Of a stretch of DNA of 64,000 nt, positions 1 to 41,607 are shown piece by piece. The notes under the pieces were generated by a model, which did not search any database, was not told the origin of the DNA, and was given only the letters and a program-made list of their open reading frames with translations. The stretch lies in assembly GCA_000004695.1 (NCBI GenBank), contig CM000153.2, forward strand, positions 1,792,001 to 1,856,000, read 5' to 3'. The position numbers and the translations under genes are program-made. This DNA is from Dictyostelium discoideum. Its lineage: Eukaryota. Every line of letters begins with the position of its first letter. Within the stretch, counting starts at the first letter, position 1.

Positions 1-426
1 TAAAAAATAATTTTTTTATTTTTTTTTTTTATTTTTTTTTTTTTCTAAACATATTAATTTATACAAATATTACAATTAATAATTTTTTAAAAATAATAGT
101 AAACACACTCATTGTATTTTTTTTTTTTTTTTATTTTATTTTTTTTTTTTTTTTTATTTTATTTAGAAAAAAAAAAAAAAAAAATTTCCTAATTTAAAAG
201 GTTATTTCACAAAAACCACATATACAAATTATAGCAAACATGTAATTAAGATAATCTATATCAAAAAAAAGGTATTGGGTAAATCATTTTTATTTATTAT
301 TCCCAAAAAAAAAAAAAAAACCTTTTAAAAAAAAAAAAACTTTTAAAAAAAAAAAGAAAAAAAAGTATTGGTTTATATAAAAAAAAAAATAAAAAAGATA
401 ATTTTTATTTTTAAATATATCAAAAA

Positions 427-983
427 ATGAGAGTATTAAATTTATTATTACCAATATTATTAATAATAGGAATTGTATCCTGCTCAAGTAATGTTTATTA
501 TTGTAATTCCAATGACCCAAATAATTGTAAATATAATATTATATATTTTTTTTATTTTTTTTTTTTTCAATAAATGTAAAATTTAAATTTATAAGAAATG
601 AATATTTATATATTTTTTTTTTCATTATTTTAAAAATAATTATAATAATATTAAATTTAGATTGCAAAGATGTTATTATTACACAAAAGGAAATTGGGAA
701 TTGGAACCAAGGAAATAGAGGTGGTGCAGAATATACTCAATGGGAAGTAACATTAGAAAATAAATTAGATTTTAGTTTAACACAATTTTACATTTTAAGA
801 GATTATACACTAAAAATTAGAGATAGAAAATCAATTTGGAATGTACAAGAAATTGAAAGTACCAATAATTTAATTTTACCAACTTATCAAAATTCAATTG
901 GTTCAAAAAGTAATTGGATTTTTGGTTTCATTTTACAAGATTCTGAACCTGCTAATTTAACATTAGAAGCAATATCATTTTGA
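427..983 (+). CDS. Small secreted protein with a CBM49-type (Dictyostelium cellulose-binding) domain; 2 exons, about 427..526 and 661..983
   Basis: ATG at 427 starts a hydrophobic signal peptide (MRVLNLLLPILLIIGIVSCSS). The donor is AATAATT|gtaaat near 526 and the acceptor aaatttag| at 660. Exon 2 encodes ...YCKDVIITQKEIGNWNQGNRGGAEYTQWEVTLENK...NLILPTYQ...WIFGFILQDSEPANLTLEAISF*. This matches the W..G..YtQ..v.itN / lP / FGfI pattern of CBM49 domains. Stop TGA is at 981-983. Confidence 0.5.
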
Positions 984-1616
984 ATGAAGAATATATATAA
1001 AAAATAAAATTCAAATTAAAAGATATATAATCTCATTTTCAAATAATTATTTATTTATTTTTTATTTATTATAATTTAATATTAAATTTATTACTTGCAC
1101 ATAATTAAGAAACAATTCGTATATTGTTATTGTTTCAATATAAATTTTACACTCCCTACTTGGGGTTTTTTTTTTTTTTTTTTTTTTTTCATTTTTCATT
1201 TAATATGATTTTTTTAAATGATTAAAGAATTCGAAAAATATGTATTAAATAGTAAAAACATTAAAAAAATGTTTTTTTTTTTGACGACAACAGTTTTTAA
1301 AATATTAACTTTTAAAACAATTATAAGAATGAGGTCAAAATATCTAATATCTTTTTAAAAATTATATTTTTTTTTTTTTTTTTTTTTCCAAAAATTTTTA
1401 AGACAAATAAAAAAAAAAAAAACAATGAAATAAAATTCTTATAAATATTCAGTATTATTTTATTTCATTTTTCAAGAAAAACAAAAAACCAAAAACAAAT
1501 TAGAAATAAAAACGCACATAAACAAAAAAAATACATATTATAATACTATATTTTATTTATTTAATAATAATTAATTTTTTATAAATTTCAATTTTAATTT
1601 TTAAAAAAAAACAAAA

Positions 1617-1848
1617 ATGGAGTACAAAGAAAAAGAGATCAATACATCATCACCTTCATCACCAAGTAAAACCCAAATTTCAAATATTGAAAATGATTCA
1701 ATTTCTGAAAAAGCACAAGAACCAATTTCTGAAAAAGTACAAGACCCAATTTCCGAAAAAGCACAAGAATCAATTTCTGAAAAAGAACATATTGAATCAA
1801 ATAATGTTAGTGAAATTATTGATTTAATTAAAAGTGGTGATCAGCATC

Positions 1849-1909
<61 letters not shown>

Positions 1910-3080
1910 AGAAGAGAATCAAGAAATCAATTATAATGACAACCAATTATCAAATGAAGAAATAGTTGAAGATGTTAAAAATTCAAATATTAATAATAAT
2001 AATACAATTGAAAAAGGAAATTCAAGTCAAAATAATAATAAAAATAATAATAATAATTATCATACTGAAAAATGTGATTATTGTTTAATTTGTAAATGTT
2101 ATGATTATGGTGAAATTACACATAATATTGTTGAAGATTCAGAAATTTTAAAACAATCAATTAGATACTCATATGTTGATGATACATCAATTAATTCAAT
2201 ATTGGCACATAGAAATTATGCAGAAAAAGAAGCAATAATGAAGAAATTTAATGATAAATATAATAAGAGTTTAGAAACAGAATTAGCAAGTCACACTCAT
2301 CAAAAATATAGACGTACTTTAATTTCAATTTTAACAGAACCAAGTATATATGATACATTAAATATTGAAAATTCAATTAAAACAAAGAATTCAAATACAT
2401 TATTGGAAATTTTATTAACAAGAACCAATGAACAAAAAGAATTAATTAAAAGAATTTATTTAGTTAAGTATGGTAAAAACATTGAACATGATATAATTGC
2501 TAAATTTTCAAATGGTGCAAATGTGAATGGTAACATGATGAAACAATTATTAATTTCAATGTTAAATAATGACCGTGATTCAAATTCAAATCAATCATTG
2601 GATATGAATTTAATAAACACTGATTCCAATAGACTATATCAAGCTGGTGAACATAAAAAAGGAACAGATCATGAAGTTTTCATTGAAATTTTAAGCAAAC
2701 GTTCTTTTTCACATTTAAGTGAACTGGATCGTGTTTATGAAAATTCAAATCCAAAAGGACATTCATTAAGAAAAGCAATTGAATTAGAATTTGGTGTATC
2801 GAAATCAATTAAACAAGTTAAAATTTCGTTATTAGATATATTATTATTTTCAAAAGAACCTTCAAAATATTGGGCTGAACAATTTAATCGTGCATTAACA
2901 AGTGGTTCTTGGGGAATTAATGAAATTGATTTAACTCGTTTAACAATAACTCAACAACATCAAGCTAGTAAAATTAAACAAGCTTATATCTCTCATTATG
3001 ATAATAGTTTAATAAATGAAGTTTCTTCAAAAACTTCATTTAGATATAAGAAAATCATTTTATCAATGTTAACAGTTTGA
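1617..3080 (+). CDS. Annexin-family protein (S/N/E-rich N-terminal region followed by four annexin repeats)
   Basis: Single 487-aa ORF. The C-terminal 320 aa carry annexin-repeat signatures: LLEILLTRTNEQKELIKRIY..., RLYQAGEHKKGTDHEVFIEILSKRSFSHLSELDRVYEN, and LTRLTITQQHQASKIKQAY. The N-terminus has PISEKAQE/PISEKVQD repeats and an N20 tract encoded by (AAT)n. Confidence 0.75.
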
Positions 3081-3281
3081 AATTTCTTCAAATTACTTTA
3101 TAAATAAATTAATTTTTTAACTTTTTATAGAATATTCTATTTTATTTATTTATCATTTTTTAAATTAATAATTATAATAATGTTTTTGAAAAGAATACTT
3201 TAATTGATTTTTTTTTTTTTTTTCATATATATTACTTTTTTTAAAATTGTAATATTACAAACTTTTTTTTTTTTTAAAATT

Positions 3282-5504
<2,223 letters not shown>

Positions 5505-7492: not shown

Positions 7493-9319
7493 TTATAATT
7501 CGGATTGAAGTTTTCTTAATTCTTCTAAAAACTTTTGTTCATTATTTATTTTTTCAATTGCAGTTGGTGGAATAAATTCTCCAGAATTTAATTTTTCTTT
7601 TAATACTTCAACCTCTTTGAGTTTTCTTTCAACATTTCTAATTTTCTTTTCAATTGGTGTTAGTTCTCTCTTTGGTTCATCTGCAGCTGGTTTTGTTGTG
7701 GTGGTGGTAGTATTGTTTGTTGTTGTTGTTGATGATGGTTTTTGTTTTGGTTTAAAAGTTGATGATGATTTGGCAGAAGCTAAATAAACTTTAAAACCAC
7801 TTGGAAGTGGAGCACCCATTGCAGGTGGTGAAGTTACAACTGGTGGAGCAGCTTGCATATTTCTAAGTGATGGTGGTGTATATTTTTGTGGTTGTGGTGA
7901 AGATTCTTTTTGTTGTTGTATACTTGGATAGACGATTCTTTCATTTGGGAAGACGAGTGGATTTAAAGGTCTCCAAGAGGCTTGATAAAGTTCAGGTATG
8001 TTTTCTTGATAGACGATAGTGTTATCGTATTTGATGATTTTAACACCATTGTCAACACGAATACGTGGTGAAAGGACAGCGGTCATAAAGTGAACGGAAT
8101 CAGCAGACCATTCAGTGTAAATGGCACAATGAGATTGAGTGCCACAAATTCTCTTGTAACGTGTTAAATCCCAAAAGTCCATATCACCTTGAAGATTACC
8201 AAAACCACCCAAACATAACAATTGACCATTTGGAGAGAAACGAATGGTGTTTCTTGGATTGAGACCAAAATCGACCAATGGTTCACCCTTTAAATTGAAA
8301 AGTGTAGTTTGTGATGGCATATTACCATAGCAAACCATGAATTGATCCAAAGTTGGGCTCCATTGAACGTCGTGAATTGGTCCTTTGATGTTGAGATTGA
8401 AACTACTACCATCTTGTGAGAGGAACCAAAGACCGGTTTCACCATAGTATGATTTACCCGATTTATCAGTGTCGGTGAATGTGTGGACAAGGATTGCGTT
8501 ACCCTTTTTATTCCACAATACCTTTGCTTCTGAAGCCTTGAAAAACTTCAAATGAGAGCAATATTCGTTGACAGTTGGATATGAGTAGATACGTGCTGAA
8601 CCTGGGGTGCTACCTTTCTCTGGTACAAAGGTTGCGATTTTGTATGGACCACCATTGGTAGCTGGTGCAAACTCGAATGAGGAGATGTCTTGTAATTTGA
8701 TCTTCTTTGCCAATACACCAATTGAACGACCATTGAAAAAGTGTACCTCGTTTGAGATCAATTTACCTGCCAATACTTCATCATCGGTCCACTTGATGAG
8801 TGGCCAATTCTCTTGGTTACAATATTTCTGTGAGGTTTTATAGAGGATGGAGGCCTGTTTGATATCCCACACAATGAGGTTGTTTTCATTGTTATTGTAT
8901 TCTGACATTCTCTCCCATGTTAAGAGGAAACTGTTTTGTGGTGAAAATGATATCATTCCAACATTTGGTCTATTGATTACAGAGTGAACTGATCCACCAT
9001 CACTATTGCAAATTACAATCTCATTCAAATTAACATATGCAATCAATGTACCATCCTTACTGTATTCAACATGACGACAATCTCCATTACTATATGATGG
9101 TAAATTTAAATTCTTTCCATATTGTTGCCCAATCTCTTGATATGCATTGGTTTTTGATCTAACTACAAATTGTAATTTTGGTGTAGTTAATGTTTCTGTT
9201 GTTGTTGTTGTTGTACTATTTGATGCTACTGATGTTAATGTTGGTGAGCTTTGTGATGGTGATGGTGATGTTGTAGTTGTAGTAGTAGTATTATTATTAT
9301 TATTATTTGGGGCACTCAT
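7493..9319 (-). CDS. Eukaryotic translation initiation factor 2A (eIF2A, 65-kDa beta-propeller protein)
   Basis: Single 608-aa ORF. NEVHFFNGRSIGVLAKKIKLQDISSFEFAPATNGGPYKIATFVPEKGSTPGSARIYSYP aligns closely with the human EIF2A motif NEVHFFENNNF...KINDFVLSPGPQPYKVAVYVPGSKGAPSFVRLYQYP. The C-terminal KKIRNVERKLKEVEVLKEKL...LEELRKLQ also matches the EIF2A tail. The N-terminus is poly-N/T/S. Confidence 0.8.
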   Translation of the reverse strand: MSAPNNNNNNTTTTTTTSPSPSQSSPTLTSVASNSTTTTTTETLTTPKLQFVVRSKTNAYQEIGQQYGKNLNLPSYSNGDCRHVEYSKDGTLIAYVNLNEIVICNSDGGSVHSVINRPNVGMISFSPQNSFLLTWERMSEYNNNENNLIVWDIKQASILYKTSQKYCNQENWPLIKWTDDEVLAGKLISNEVHFFNGRSIGVLAKKIKLQDISSFEFAPATNGGPYKIATFVPEKGSTPGSARIYSYPTVNEYCSHLKFFKASEAKVLWNKKGNAILVHTFTDTDKSGKSYYGETGLWFLSQDGSSFNLNIKGPIHDVQWSPTLDQFMVCYGNMPSQTTLFNLKGEPLVDFGLNPRNTIRFSPNGQLLCLGGFGNLQGDMDFWDLTRYKRICGTQSHCAIYTEWSADSVHFMTAVLSPRIRVDNGVKIIKYDNTIVYQENIPELYQASWRPLNPLVFPNERIVYPSIQQQKESSPQPQKYTPPSLRNMQAAPPVVTSPPAMGAPLPSGFKVYLASAKSSSTFKPKQKPSSTTTTNNTTTTTTKPAADEPKRELTPIEKKIRNVERKLKEVEVLKEKLNSGEFIPPTAIEKINNEQKFLEELRKLQSEL

Positions 9320-9421: not shown

Positions 9422-10330
9422 ATGTTTATTTGTATGTATTTATTTAAAATATAGTATTATTTTAAAATTGTTATTATTGTTGTTATTATTAATATTATTA
9501 TTATAAAATTAATTCTTTTTTTATTTTTCAAATATATGTAGAAATTATTACTATTTAAAATATTATTATTATTTTATTATTAGTTATTTATTATTTTATT
9601 ATTAGTTATTTATTATTTATTAATACTATGTGCGCTCTTACTACTCTCTCTCCTGTCTCACTCTTTATCGTTTTTCTATAACTGTGATCCCCTTTTGTGG
9701 TTTGCGATTTCACATATAAAAATTTAAAAAAAACTTTTTTTTTCAAAAAAAAAAATTTAAAAAAAAAAAAAAAAATAAAAAAAAATAAAAAAAATTTCAC
9801 AAAAAAAAAAAAATAAAAATAAAAATAAATAAATAAAAATAAAATAAATTAAAAAAAATTAAAATAAAATAATAAATTTAATTAAAATCACAGTGCTAAA
9901 ATAAAAACAATAAAGTGACGAATAGATTTGTCAAATAAAAATTTAATTTAATTAAAAATAATTTCCAAAAAAAAAAAAAAAAAAAAAATATTCAAGTGAT
10001 CGGTATTAAACAAGAAAAAAAAAAAAAATAAAAAAAAAATAATAATATTAAATTTAAATCTTGTTTTCTTTTAATTTTTTTTTTTTAGAAATCATAAAAA
10101 ATCCAATGTTTCTATTAATATTGAGATTGAAAATCATAATATATTCCAAGAGTGTCCAGTTTGTACCATTTGTTAAAGAGAATCAAATAGGAAAGTTTTT
10201 CATCTTCAGACAGTTCTTCATTGATCCAACAAATATTATGAATTTTTGATGTCATTATGTTCTATATGCGCATAATGGCATTTAAAGTTCTGAATAGTCA
10301 TATTTTCACATTTGATTAGAGACTGAATGA

Positions 10331-10341
10331 GAATCGAACCT
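10331..10341 (-). promoter_or_regulatory. External B box (exB), an extra Pol III B-box copy about 33-43 bp downstream of the tRNA 3' end
   Basis: The minus strand reads GGTTCGATTCTC, which matches the B-box consensus GGTTCGAATCC. Dictyostelium tRNA genes frequently carry such an exB box 20-40 bp downstream; this is established knowledge. Confidence 0.5.
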
Positions 10342-10372
10342 CCGACGATATATGGGTAGGCGAAAAAAATTT

Positions 10373-10445
10373 CGCCCAAAGGGGGGCTCGAACCCCCGAC
10401 CACAAGGTTAAAAGCCTTGCGCTCTACCGACTGAGCTATCTGGGC
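10373..10445 (-). tRNA. tRNA-Lys (anticodon UUU), 73 nt
   Basis: Reverse complement of 10373-10445 is GCCCAGATAGCTCAGTCGGTAGAGCGCAAGGCTTTTAACCTTGTGGTCGGGGGTTCGAGCCCCCCTTTGGGCG. The acceptor stem has 7 bp with one G-U pair. The D stem is GCTC/GAGC. The anticodon stem is CAAGG/CCTTG with loop CTTTTAA. The T arm is GGGGG-TTCGAGC-CCCCC. The ORF track's minus-strand ORF 10236..10502 is the tRNA being translated. Confidence 0.85.
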
Positions 10446-10477
10446 ATTTTTGAATTTTAAATTAAAAATAAACCCAA

Positions 10478-10499
10478 TAAAGAATAATTTTAACCAATT

Positions 10500-10533
<34 letters not shown>

Positions 10534-10581
10534 AAGAATAATTTTAAAAATTATAACAATAATAATAATAATAATAATAAT

Positions 10582-10614
<33 letters not shown>

Positions 10615-10627
10615 TAAGAATAACAAG

Positions 10628-10666
<39 letters not shown>

Positions 10667-11120
10667 AAACTCTCCTAGAACACACTCAAATTGAGTGATG
10701 TTATTAAAAAAAAAAAAAAAAGAATAATTTTAAACTACACTCTAACTTAGTGTGGACACACTTGGAATGTGGAGATTTTAAACCATCTACAAATTGCACT
10801 AATATCCAATTTAATAGCTATCATATTCGAAAAAATATGGCAAAAAAGAAACAAACTGATTCACGATGAAAAAGAAATAATAATTCATCATACGTGAACT
10901 AATTAAAACACAAAGAGCTGCATGGGACAGGACACAAGCGGTGATAAACAAAACATTAAGAATCAAATCAAAGCAACGACCAGAAGAATTAGACTCATTA
11001 ATCTCGCTAAAGCTATTACAATTTAGCAGACAATGGAACTCACCTCTTCACGCAATAGCACTTCCTAAACATCTCAAAAAATACAACAATTCACTCAGTA
11101 CTTTCTATAAATAAAAAAAA

Positions 11121-11171
<51 letters not shown>

Positions 11172-11625
11172 AAAAAAAAAAAAACCTGGGGACCCAAGTT
11201 AATCAGAAAATTTCCAGATTTATAACTTTTTAAAGTAAAATAAAAAAAATAGAAAGAAAACAAGTTGAAAATTACAAACAACACCACAAATATTAAGCAA
11301 CATAAATGCCTACATAAAATAAGCGAAATTGTGGATAAAACTCATATAAAAAAAAAACAATTCAAATATGTCATCAACATCAATCACGAACCAGACGATA
11401 AAATAAAAAAAGATTTAGAAAAATGTTTGGACAAAAAATATGTTTTAATCAAAAGTTATAATACAATTCAAAATTCGAAACAAAAAAAAAAAAAAAAAAA
11501 AAAAGTAAACTAACCCCTCTTTTAGAGACCCTGTAAAAAAACTAAAATAAAATGAGATCTAGCATCTCAAGGAGAAGCAACCAATAATTGCGTTATCCAA
11601 TTCAAAAAAAAAAGAATAATTTTAA
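10478..11625 (+). mobile_element. Nest of three 5'-truncated, poly(A)-terminated non-LTR retroelement (TRE5-like) insertions bounded by four copies of the target-site duplication (T)AAAGAATAATTTTAA, beginning about 33-47 bp upstream of the tRNA-Lys gene
   Basis: Direct repeats sit at 10478-10493, 10532-10547, 10719-10733 and 11611-11625. Unit 1 (10494-10531) is ccaattc plus A30. Unit 2 (10548-10718) is AT-rich sequence ...gagtgatgttatt plus poly(A). Unit 3 (10734-11610) is an 875-bp moderately GC-rich body with internal A75 and A27 tracts, ending ...gcgttatccaattc plus A10. The ccaattc-poly(A) terminus is shared by units 1 and 3. Orientation is poly(A) distal to the tRNA. The family assignment (TRE5-A/B/C) is inference from the position only. 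Confidence 0.5.
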
Positions 11626-40739: not shown

Positions 40740-41607
40740 AAAATAAATAAAATTTATTCATTTATAAACCATTCCTATTGGTGGATCCATGCCATCTGAA
40801 CCAAAATCATTCCAATTTAATAATAACAGTTAAATTAAAATATTTTTACTAATTATTAAATAATTTATCATTTAGATGTAAGATTTATCCTTAGATGTAA
40901 GTTTCTTGGTTCATCAATATCTTTTTAACCAAGTTCATTTTTACCCTCGAAGAATTATTATTTTGATTATTTTGATTATTTGGATCTCTCTTTATTTACT
41001 ATTTGATTTTGACTATCACCTTTTTTTTTTTTTTTTTTTTTTGAATTGGATATTGCAATCGTTAATATAATTTTTAAAAAATTTTCATAATAAAAATAAT
41101 AAAAAATAAATGTATAAAGAAATATGTGAATGAGTAAAATAAAAAAAAAAAAAAAAAAATATAAAATTTCTTTTTATTTCATTTTTTTTTTTTTTCGAAT
41201 TTCAAAACCCGTAAAATTTCAACGTTTTAAAACAATTAAATTAACCTTGGGTTTCAAAATAAAAATAAATAAAAAACCCCCCCCTGTAAAAATTATTAAA
41301 AAAAAAAATAAAATCAAAATTAAATAGGGCACCAAATGAAAAAATAGTAGTTACTAGGATTTTAAAAAAATAAAAGAAAAAAAAAAAAAAAAAAAAAAAA
41401 AAAATAAAAAATTAATTATTCACTTTTTTTCACAATTAACATCAATAAAGGCCGAAAATACAATGAATACCCACTACTACAACTACTACTCAACCAATTC
41501 CATTTGATTATGAAGAAAGAAGAAGAATATTATTTATTGATCCATATGATAAAGAAAGAATTGATGGCTATAACAAAGAACTTCGAAATTTATATAAATT
41601 TCAATTA

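Follow-up and report, generated by a model that had tools for sequence, protein, structure and literature searches.

We analysed a 64 kb stretch of Dictyostelium discoideum DNA (assembly GCA_000004695.1, contig CM000153.2, positions 1,792,001 to 1,856,000), hereafter called the window, in whose coordinates all positions are given, and found that a tRNA-Lys(UUU) gene, with its +1 at 10445, has very probably been used three times as a landmark by TRE5 retrotransposons of the kind that lacks long terminal repeats (non-LTR). The three inserts upstream of this gene, numbered units 1 to 3 from the tRNA outward, would stem from successive rounds of target-primed reverse transcription, the newest lying nearest to the tRNA. 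Judging from their 3' ends, the stack was apparently built by two element families, one represented by TRE5-A and the other TRE5-B-like. A first-pass annotation of this DNA had proposed repeated integrations into one site with older copies displaced outward, and this proposal is borne out by three poly(A)-ended 3' ends that are each bracketed by the same duplication.

Four exact copies of one target-site duplication

The sequence AAAGAATAATTTTAA occurs as an exact match four times in the window, at 10479, 10533, 10719 and 11611, always on the plus strand. The chance expectation is 0.07 copies, and a count of four was reached in 0 of 100 shuffles. Once two mismatches are allowed, the count is at chance level, and only exact copies are therefore meaningful. 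The copies and the spacer that separates them from the tRNA gene are as follows; loci fetched for comparison carry L numbers.

10446–10478, no strand: original spacer of 33 bp from the tRNA +1 to the duplicated target, from the sequence; aligns with the unoccupied orthologous site in L003
10479–10493, plus strand: target-site duplication copy 1 (−34 to −48), from an exact-match scan
10533–10547, plus strand: target-site duplication copy 2, from the same scan
10719–10733, plus strand: target-site duplication copy 3, from the same scan
11611–11625, plus strand: target-site duplication copy 4, probably the oldest, from the same scan; it runs into the original right flank, which aligns with L003 and L005

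All three units lie on the plus strand with their 5' ends toward the tRNA's 5' end and their poly(A) distal to it, and the A-run of each unit (3/3) directly adjoins the next repeat copy. The proximal copy spans −34 to −48 from the tRNA +1, or begins at −33 if the T at 10478 is counted, and its last base, 10493, lies at 48 bp; the top-strand break falls at −48/−49 for all three insertions. Copy 1 together with the AAT at 10476–10478 has up to 18 nt in common with copy 2, and the duplication measures 16–18 nt for unit 1 versus 12–15 nt for units 2 and 3, the boundary with the poly(A) being ambiguous. The number of repeats and their bracketing of three poly(A)-ended units had been recognised in the first-pass annotation, although the first two starts shift to 10479 and 10533 for the 15-mer; likewise, its placement of the first repeat 33–47 bp upstream captured the TRE5 distance, but the exact span is −34 to −48. 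With a distance of 48 bp and plus-strand units, the proposed TRE5-type distance and orientation hold.

TRE5-A is known to integrate 47±3 bp upstream of tRNA genes in a strict orientation, with its 5' end facing the tRNA (PMC5391098, PMC3159450), and to generate duplications of 10–16 bp (PMC9012585); the stack agrees with TRE5-A in position, orientation and duplication size. Other TRE5-A copies are flanked by different duplications, namely GGTAATTTTTTTA in L008, ATCGAATTCATGAAA in L001 and ATATAGGTTTTTT in L007, and the element in L010 by GCAATTTTTTA. Since the duplications differ among element copies, AAAGAATAATTTTAA is target DNA and not element DNA.

Long A-runs dominate the region and confuse repeat finders; repeat finding and unfiltered BLAST were here swamped by them and uninformative unless they were masked. 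This, together with A-tract lengths that vary between assemblies, might also be seen if a satellite or tandem repeat had expanded locally, or if A-rich sequence had been misassembled. We nevertheless consider such an origin of the stack to be vanishingly improbable, because the units are unlike in both sequence and length, because relatives of every one of them occur at other places in the genome, and because a second assembly shows the same order and the same four copies with zero substitutions. The simple tandem satellite that had been contemplated at the outset does not agree with units that differ so completely from each other.

The tRNA-Lys(UUU) gene

ARAGORN called a tRNA-Lys(UUU) at 10372–10446 on the minus strand, and Rfam/Infernal (RF00005) placed the tRNA at 10373–10445 on the same strand with 72.6 bits versus a gathering score of 29 (E=6e-14). 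The gene and its RNA polymerase III (Pol III) signals comprise the following features.

10373–10445, minus strand: tRNA-Lys(UUU) gene containing an A box and a B box, the latter being GTTCGAGCC at 10385–10393 (ARAGORN, Rfam, B-box scan)
10363–10369, minus strand: Pol III terminator, T7 on the tRNA strand, 3 nt past the tRNA end (sequence)
10329–10340, minus strand: external B box GGTTCGATTCTC, with core GTTCGATTC at 10331–10339 (pattern scan)

The core GTTCGATTC fits the consensus GTTCRAnYC, and the external box lies 32 nt downstream of the tRNA gene; a B-box-like motif stands in the matching place in the orthologous loci L003, L004, L005 and L006. External B boxes are found about 41 bp downstream in 66% of D. 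discoideum tRNA genes (PMC3159450). Thus, the cloverleaf, the A and B boxes, the T-run terminator and a GTTCRAnYC motif some 30–40 bp downstream, all of which characterise a D. discoideum tRNA gene, are present. The tRNA-Lys(UUU) with an external B box that had been annotated earlier is therefore real, its score being far above threshold, while the coordinates of the external box needed correction from 10331–10341 to 10329–10340. According to Table S2 of PMC5391098, both LysUUU genes on chromosome 4, one of which may be the present gene, received de novo TRE5-A(bsr) insertions.

Unit 3 resembles a truncated TRE5-A

Unit 3 (10734–11610, 877 bp) is, on our reading of its sequence, probably a dead, 5'-truncated copy of an open reading frame 2 (ORF2)-containing TRE5-A. 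For comparison, three loci that encode related ORF2 fragments (L001, L007 and L008) were fetched to obtain genomic copies. L001 contains a tRNA-Thr with a TRE5-A.2-like element, consisting of an A-module, a B-module with the ORF1 ATG, a 444-amino-acid (aa) ORF1, a deleted ORF2, and B- and C-modules, and behind it a 5'-truncated TRE5-A copy; L007 and L008 hold further truncated TRE5-A copies at tRNA-Leu and tRNA-Ile. Four parts can be distinguished in unit 3.

10734–11114, plus strand: part 1, the last 125 or so codons of TRE5-A ORF2 in degenerate form, stop codon at 11112–11114 (translation, identity to other copies)
11115–11184, plus strand: part 2, A-rich tract between the ORF2 end and the 3' B-module (same tract in the L001, L007 and L008 copies)
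11185–11476, plus strand: part 3, 3' B-module of about 291 bp with the ORF1 start region MKITNNTT... (93.6% identity to the L001 5' B-module)
11477–11610, plus strand: part 4, C-module of about 134 nt, counting an internal A23 and the A7 at its end, with the terminus gcgttatccaattc(A)n (alignment to the L001, L007 and L008 C-modules)

When translated, the first 380 nt show 86% aa identity to C-terminal fragments of ORF2 from D. discoideum, DDB_G0276495 among them, which are annotated as reverse-transcriptase zinc-binding proteins and carry a CxxC...H...C motif just upstream of the shared tail. The tail in unit 3 is damaged by one in-frame stop, one frameshift and small deletions. Of the TRE5-A ORF2, which is of the APE/RT/zinc-finger type, only this C-terminal part is present, the reverse transcriptase (RT) and APE domains being absent through truncation, and a search with the ORF1 N-terminus returned short fragments only and no full ORF1. 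Over its whole length, unit 3 shares 93–95% nucleotide identity (ungapped columns) with the copies in L001, L007 and L008, and the segment 11185–11476 matches the TRE5-A.2 copy (L001 3173–3497) with 93.6% identity across the latter's 5' B-module and the beginning of its ORF1. The B-module (290 bp) is duplicated in the 3' untranslated region (UTR) of TRE5-A only, and the C-module (134 bp) forms the 3' end of TRE5-A and TRE5-C, not of TRE5-B (PMC3159450); unit 3 has the duplicated B-module, the C-module and the oligo(A) of a TRE5-A 3' UTR. It retains 372 nt of the ORF2 3' end, of which the TRE5-A.2 deletion derivative in L001 lacks the first ~317 nt; the template RNA therefore had an ORF2-containing 3' region.

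The internal A-tracts are normal module parts in both element families rather than extra insertion tails. Unit 3 had previously been suggested to be a modular non-autonomous element on account of such tracts, a view that gives way to the ORF2-B-C architecture of a 5'-truncated TRE5-A. Its description as a poly(A)-ended insert bracketed by target-site duplications (TSDs) stands, with a length of 877 instead of 875 bp, while the tract described as A75 is really A8-C-A49-C-A13 (11113–11184) and that described as A27 is A23 (11482–11504). Both unit 3 and unit 2 have clear retroelement relatives, in agreement with the origin first suggested for the stack. We also observed that the 3' B-module of unit 3 carries TTG at 11265–11267, a position that in the 5' B-modules of other copies is taken by the ATG of ORF1; other 3' B-modules (L001 5002, L007 10678) retain the ATG.

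Unit 1, an insertion with seven nucleotides before its tail

Unit 1 and unit 3 share the terminus ccaattc(A)n, which is also found in independent TRE5-A copies at L001 6233–6260 and L008 10680–10704.

10494–10531, plus strand: unit 1, probably the youngest, ccaattc followed by A31 (identical 7 nt and A-run in unit 3, L001 and L008)

Its recurrence in the independent copies of L001 and L008 substantiates the earlier suggestion that ...ccaattc(A)n is a TRE5 C-module terminus. At the base composition of this DNA, a given 7-mer with three C's is calculated to occur at about 3 per 100,000 positions. As to the family, ccaattc is the C-module terminus common to TRE5-A and TRE5-C (PMC3159450), and the unit offers 7 nt only. 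Unit 1 is thus best read as a putative TRE5-A (or TRE5-C) insertion in which only 7 nt were copied beyond the tail. An extreme 5' truncation had already been proposed for it and is retained, with a tail of A31 and not A30.

The same end structure would be left if a longer TRE5-A or TRE5-C copy had been internally deleted down to its last 7 nt and tail; AT-rich, repeat-rich DNA often suffers deletions, and deletions associated with TRE5-A integration have been noted (PMC3159450). However, the deletion would have had to start exactly at the first base past the duplication, and ...TTTTAA shares no microhomology with the corresponding junction in a longer copy (...GTTAT before CCAATTC). The A-tail of unit 1 is moreover the longest and purest of the three units, as fits the youngest event, and TRE5-A copies ordinarily lose their 5' part while they are being reverse-transcribed. 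We consequently regard later deletion as unlikely and favour truncation during reverse transcription as the source of unit 1.

Unit 2 and its TRE5-B-like relatives

Unit 2 (171 bp) consists of an AAT-rich stretch, A32 (10628–10659), a unique tail of 46 nt (10660–10705) and a terminal A13.

10548–10718, plus strand: unit 2, putative 5'-truncated TRE5-B-like 3' UTR (whole-length alignment with the 3' UTR of the L010 element)

No relatives of its tail were detected in the window, in loci L001–L008, in Rfam at permissive thresholds, or in JGI metagenome contigs. A full HMMER scan with the TRE5-A ORF2 tail, which revealed families about 39–40% identical to the TRE5-A ORF2 C-terminus in D. discoideum isolates, led to L009 and L010, the relatives of unit 2. 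L010 contains a TSD-flanked element of about 6.1 kb, located 46 bp upstream of a tRNA-Thr in TRE5 orientation with the duplication GCAATTTTTTA. The 5' modules of this element are A- and B-like, its ORF1 is a different one, and its ORF2 is of the RVT_1 type. Its 3' UTR runs from an A-tract through an AAT/AAC-rich stretch and a second A-tract to ctaaataaactctcctagaacacacCcaaattgGgtgatgttatt(A)17, and the unit 2 tail matches it at 43 of 45 positions, both differences being compensatory within a hairpin. L009 has a related 3' end upstream of a tRNA-Arg. Two explanations that had been entertained for unit 2, namely two separate insertions and the 3' end of a processed mRNA with AATAAA, were rejected, as the L010 3' UTR has the same internal A-tract and AAT-rich architecture.

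The tails of unit 2, L010 and L009, which end in ...gtgatgttatt(A)n or ...gaggtcatt(A)n, are not similar to the C-module, and all lie at tRNA genes in a TRE5-type position and orientation. Because the C-module ends TRE5-A and TRE5-C but not TRE5-B (PMC3159450), we call unit 2 TRE5-B-like, an assignment by elimination to a putative second TRE5 family without a C-module. An N-terminal fragment of the L010 ORF1, which is itself fragmented, shows 38% identity to the TRE5-A ORF1 over 132 aa, with the rest unaligned, and the 25% reported between TRE5-B and TRE5-A refers to the whole protein.

A hairpin precedes the poly(A) in all three relatives, at 10679–10702 in the window, 6598–6622 in L010 and about 4917–4944 in L009. 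RNAalifold, run on these three sequences, predicted 11 hairpin pairs, two of which are kept via changes on both sides, for example CACTCAAATTGAGTG versus CACCCAAATTGGGTG. This TRE5-B-like 3' hairpin could be a recognition signal for the reverse transcriptase of the element.

The stack in a second assembly and at orthologous loci

Assembly GCA_054883475.1 (L002) shares 13.8 kb with the window in colinear order, with 0 mismatches, and contains the same four repeat copies. Within the stack, its A-tracts are shorter by 4, 7 and 19 A at 10501–10531, 10628–10659 and 11122–11170, respectively, the unit 1 tract being A27. As the architecture is reproduced in L002, it is not an assembly artefact, whereas the A-tract lengths are uncertain or polymorphic. 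Overall, the two assemblies differ at eight places, all of them homopolymer runs that are shorter in L002; five lie outside the stack, between 4525 and 14653. Either the length of long A/T tracts changes in culture, or one of the two sequencing methods resolves such tracts poorly.

An empty site reconstructed from the left flank, one repeat and the right flank aligns continuously with the unoccupied locus L003. The alignment includes the 15-mer TTTTTTATTTTAAAA at a near-equal distance from the tRNA, and TTTTTTATTTTAAAA is rare (3 per 128 kb on both strands). The state of the region upstream of the orthologous tRNA-Lys(UUU) differs from isolate to isolate.

L003, D. discoideum ACTFIW: unoccupied
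L004, D. discoideum ACTFIR (GCA_054859385.1): DGLT-A-like LTR retrotransposon, LTR edge about 12–13 bp upstream
L005, D. cf. discoideum ACTFIY: TRE5-A-like element of A-B-C structure, inserted independently and flanked by a duplication of its own
L006, D. cf. discoideum ACTFIZ: no TRE5
L011, D. citrinum: independent C-module-ended fragment of about 230 bp (4850–5095), duplication GCCAAAA(A)TT

The orthologous tRNA-Lys(UUU) is a recurrent landing pad. Several of these loci have features of their own. The L005 element (3898–4414) is ORF-less with partial A, B and C, and a near-perfect hairpin of about 60 nt lies at about 3430–3500 of the same locus. L004 has, at 1–4790, a gag-pol reading frame that encodes at least 1499 aa without interruption, and no TRE5 stack at the orthologous tRNA; AX4 lacks a full-length DGLT-A (PMC5006619), and the DGLT-A family may still be active in wild isolates.

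L001 and L010 turned out to be one genomic locus, the tRNA-Thr(AGU) by the profilin gene, in two D. discoideum assemblies. This site holds TRE5-A.2 and a truncated TRE5-A in L001, and the TRE5-B-like element of about 6.1 kb in L010. Since the occupants differ, TRE occupancy at tRNA genes is highly polymorphic between isolates.

Proposed order and mechanism of the integrations

Starting from the unit identities, orientation, distance and repeats, which are observed directly and recur in the second assembly, we infer the order of events and a mechanism, in which the role of TFIIIB/TFIIIC is taken from published TRE5-A work. TRE5-A integration is guided by the TFIIIC/TFIIIB complex; TREs that arrive at an occupied tRNA gene form TRE-TRE tandems without interrupting each other, as in the case of LysCUU-2, where a TRE5-A inserted de novo at 46 bp upstream and thus ahead of the TRE5-A.1 already resident there (PMC5391098, PMC3159450, PMC9012585). 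A TRE5-A RNA with an intact ORF2 3' region would first have given rise to the 877-bp, 5'-truncated unit 3, duplicating the target AAAGAATAATTTTAA at −34 to −48. With the site set by its distance from the tRNA, the proximal duplication copy would stay at −34 to −48 and be hit again, so that a TRE5-B-like element would then have left the 171-bp 3' UTR fragment that is unit 2. Finally, a TRE5-A (or TRE5-C) RNA would have been reverse-transcribed just 7 nt past the poly(A) before the insertion was sealed as unit 1. Every event would re-duplicate the target and move the older inserts outward, the primer (bottom-strand) nick falling at the tRNA-proximal edge of the duplication with slight variation, given that copy 2 has an extra T and possibly AAT.

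Because the target is measured from the tRNA and the proximal copy is re-duplicated each time, the order would be unit 3, unit 2 and unit 1. The poly(A) tails shorten outward (31, 13–16 and 7–10), and unit 3 has 16 private substitutions versus 8–10 in other copies; both the shortening and the extra substitutions fit the proposed order. The same stacking logic is seen in L001, where the duplication of the newer TRE5-A.2 adjoins the 5' end of the older truncated TRE5-A.

Two families side by side could also point to one complex event in which the reverse transcriptase switched templates among several RNAs, and template-switched chimeric inserts are known for LINE-type elements. Such switching would join the units directly, whereas a full target copy stands between all of them, and the duplication of 16–18 nt at unit 1 versus at most 15 nt at units 2 and 3 argues for separate nicking events. 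A single chimeric insertion therefore appears very improbable.

Several points weigh against three successive integrations in the order proposed. No intermediate stack (unit 3 alone, or units 2 and 3) was found in seven orthologous loci, and the order is one that we infer. The L003 lineage is divergent (eIF2A 98% at the aa level, flanks about 65% outside the tRNA), so that it supports the reconstruction of the empty site but cannot time the events. The gradient in tail length is soft evidence, as A-tract lengths vary between assemblies. The 7 nt of unit 1 are significant in their context, yet may be compatible with TRE5-A, with TRE5-C or with a longer copy that was later deleted. Moreover, the family names rest on published architecture and genomic copies instead of a reference consensus, with TRE5-B assigned by elimination.

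Relation to known systems

The stack is a clean example of already published biology and not a new kind of element. TRE-TRE tandems, distance, orientation and duplication size have all been published, the locus belongs to the reference strain, for which a survey of TRE copies exists, and known TRE5 biology remains unchanged. With TRE5-A (formerly DRE), a tRNA gene-targeted non-LTR retrotransposon, units 3 and 1 have in common the position, orientation, short duplications and frequent 5' truncation, as well as the 3' order ORF2, A-tract, B-module, A-tract, C-module and oligo(A) with the terminus ...gcgttatccaattc(A)n. There is no fundamental difference, except that unit 3 is dead and degenerate, with TTG for ATG, and that catalogued copies are as a rule much longer than unit 1. 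Like TRE5-B, unit 2 and the elements in L010 and L009 lie about 46–50 bp upstream of tRNA genes, are poly(A)-ended and lack a C-module, while the identity of the L010 ORF1 to that of TRE5-A is 38% over an N-terminal fragment of 132 aa, the published value for the whole protein being 25%.

In the TRE-TRE tandems described so far, including those formed by TRE5-A(bsr), the newcomer sits between the tRNA gene and an uninterrupted resident (PMC5391098, PMC9012585), and the window presents a three-layer natural case of this arrangement. The regeneration of the same duplication with each layer is not spelled out in these accounts, and layers of 7 nt are not reported. Drosophila R1 arrays and P element and jockey dimers (McGurk and Barbash, bioRxiv 10.1101/158386) similarly have the target duplication in every junction and unlike 5' truncation points, and a target duplication at each junction with varied truncation is diagnostic of double insertion and not of duplication (bioRxiv 10.1101/158386). 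In contrast to these tandems, the site of the present stack is set by the distance to a Pol III gene and not by a DNA motif, and two families contributed to it.

With its three layers, which two families have placed at a single nucleotide position, the locus documents in condensed form how position-specific retrotransposons return to a "safe" landing site when the genome is gene-dense. It is well suited to teaching and to the calibration of annotation pipelines, which would probably miss units 1 and 2. It offers three small leads, namely the micro-insertion of 7 nt, the fact that two families used the site three times with nucleotide precision, and the conserved TRE5-B-like 3' hairpin. The same top-strand break (−48/−49) in three events and two families, combined with a variable primer nick, may mean that TFIIIB/TFIIIC and the local sequence, and not the element, position second-strand cleavage. 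We tentatively speculate that TRE5 reverse transcription often aborts at a very early point, as unit 1 may show, and leaves scars, while host machinery positions second-strand cleavage, a combination that we think possible but doubtful. If true, repeat annotation would overlook these TSD-flanked poly(A) scars, which would sit some 48 bp upstream of tRNA genes, and the integration frequency would be understated.

Neighbouring genes and minor observations

On the minus strand at 41035–41057, the window contains gattgcaatatccaattc(A)22, which resembles a C-module terminus with 17 of 22 matches to the AX4 C-module; its core tgcaatatcc matches the D. citrinum C-module variant (L011 about 4858–4880). 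Neither a tRNA gene nor a B box nor a target duplication was seen near 41035–41057, and this segment may be an off-target micro-insertion or may have arisen by chance.

Downstream of the tRNA-Lys(UUU), about 160 bp at 10142–10303, between a conserved intergenic block and the external B box, have no counterpart in the orthologous loci; they had zero matches to elements in the fetched loci and hold a minus-strand ORF of 46 codons. A TRE3 remnant was considered for 9940–10330 and dropped for lack of evidence, as 9940–10141 is intergenic DNA conserved in all orthologs and 10142–10303 is unmatched.

The window consists of AX4-type D. discoideum DNA, and its GC content is about 16–30%. The stack sits in a 2.6-kb intergenic region, with a ComC-like gene (start about 11929) on one side and the eIF2A gene on the other, the 608-aa ORF at 7493–9319 on the minus strand being identical to D. 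discoideum AX4 eIF2A (XP_638688.1).

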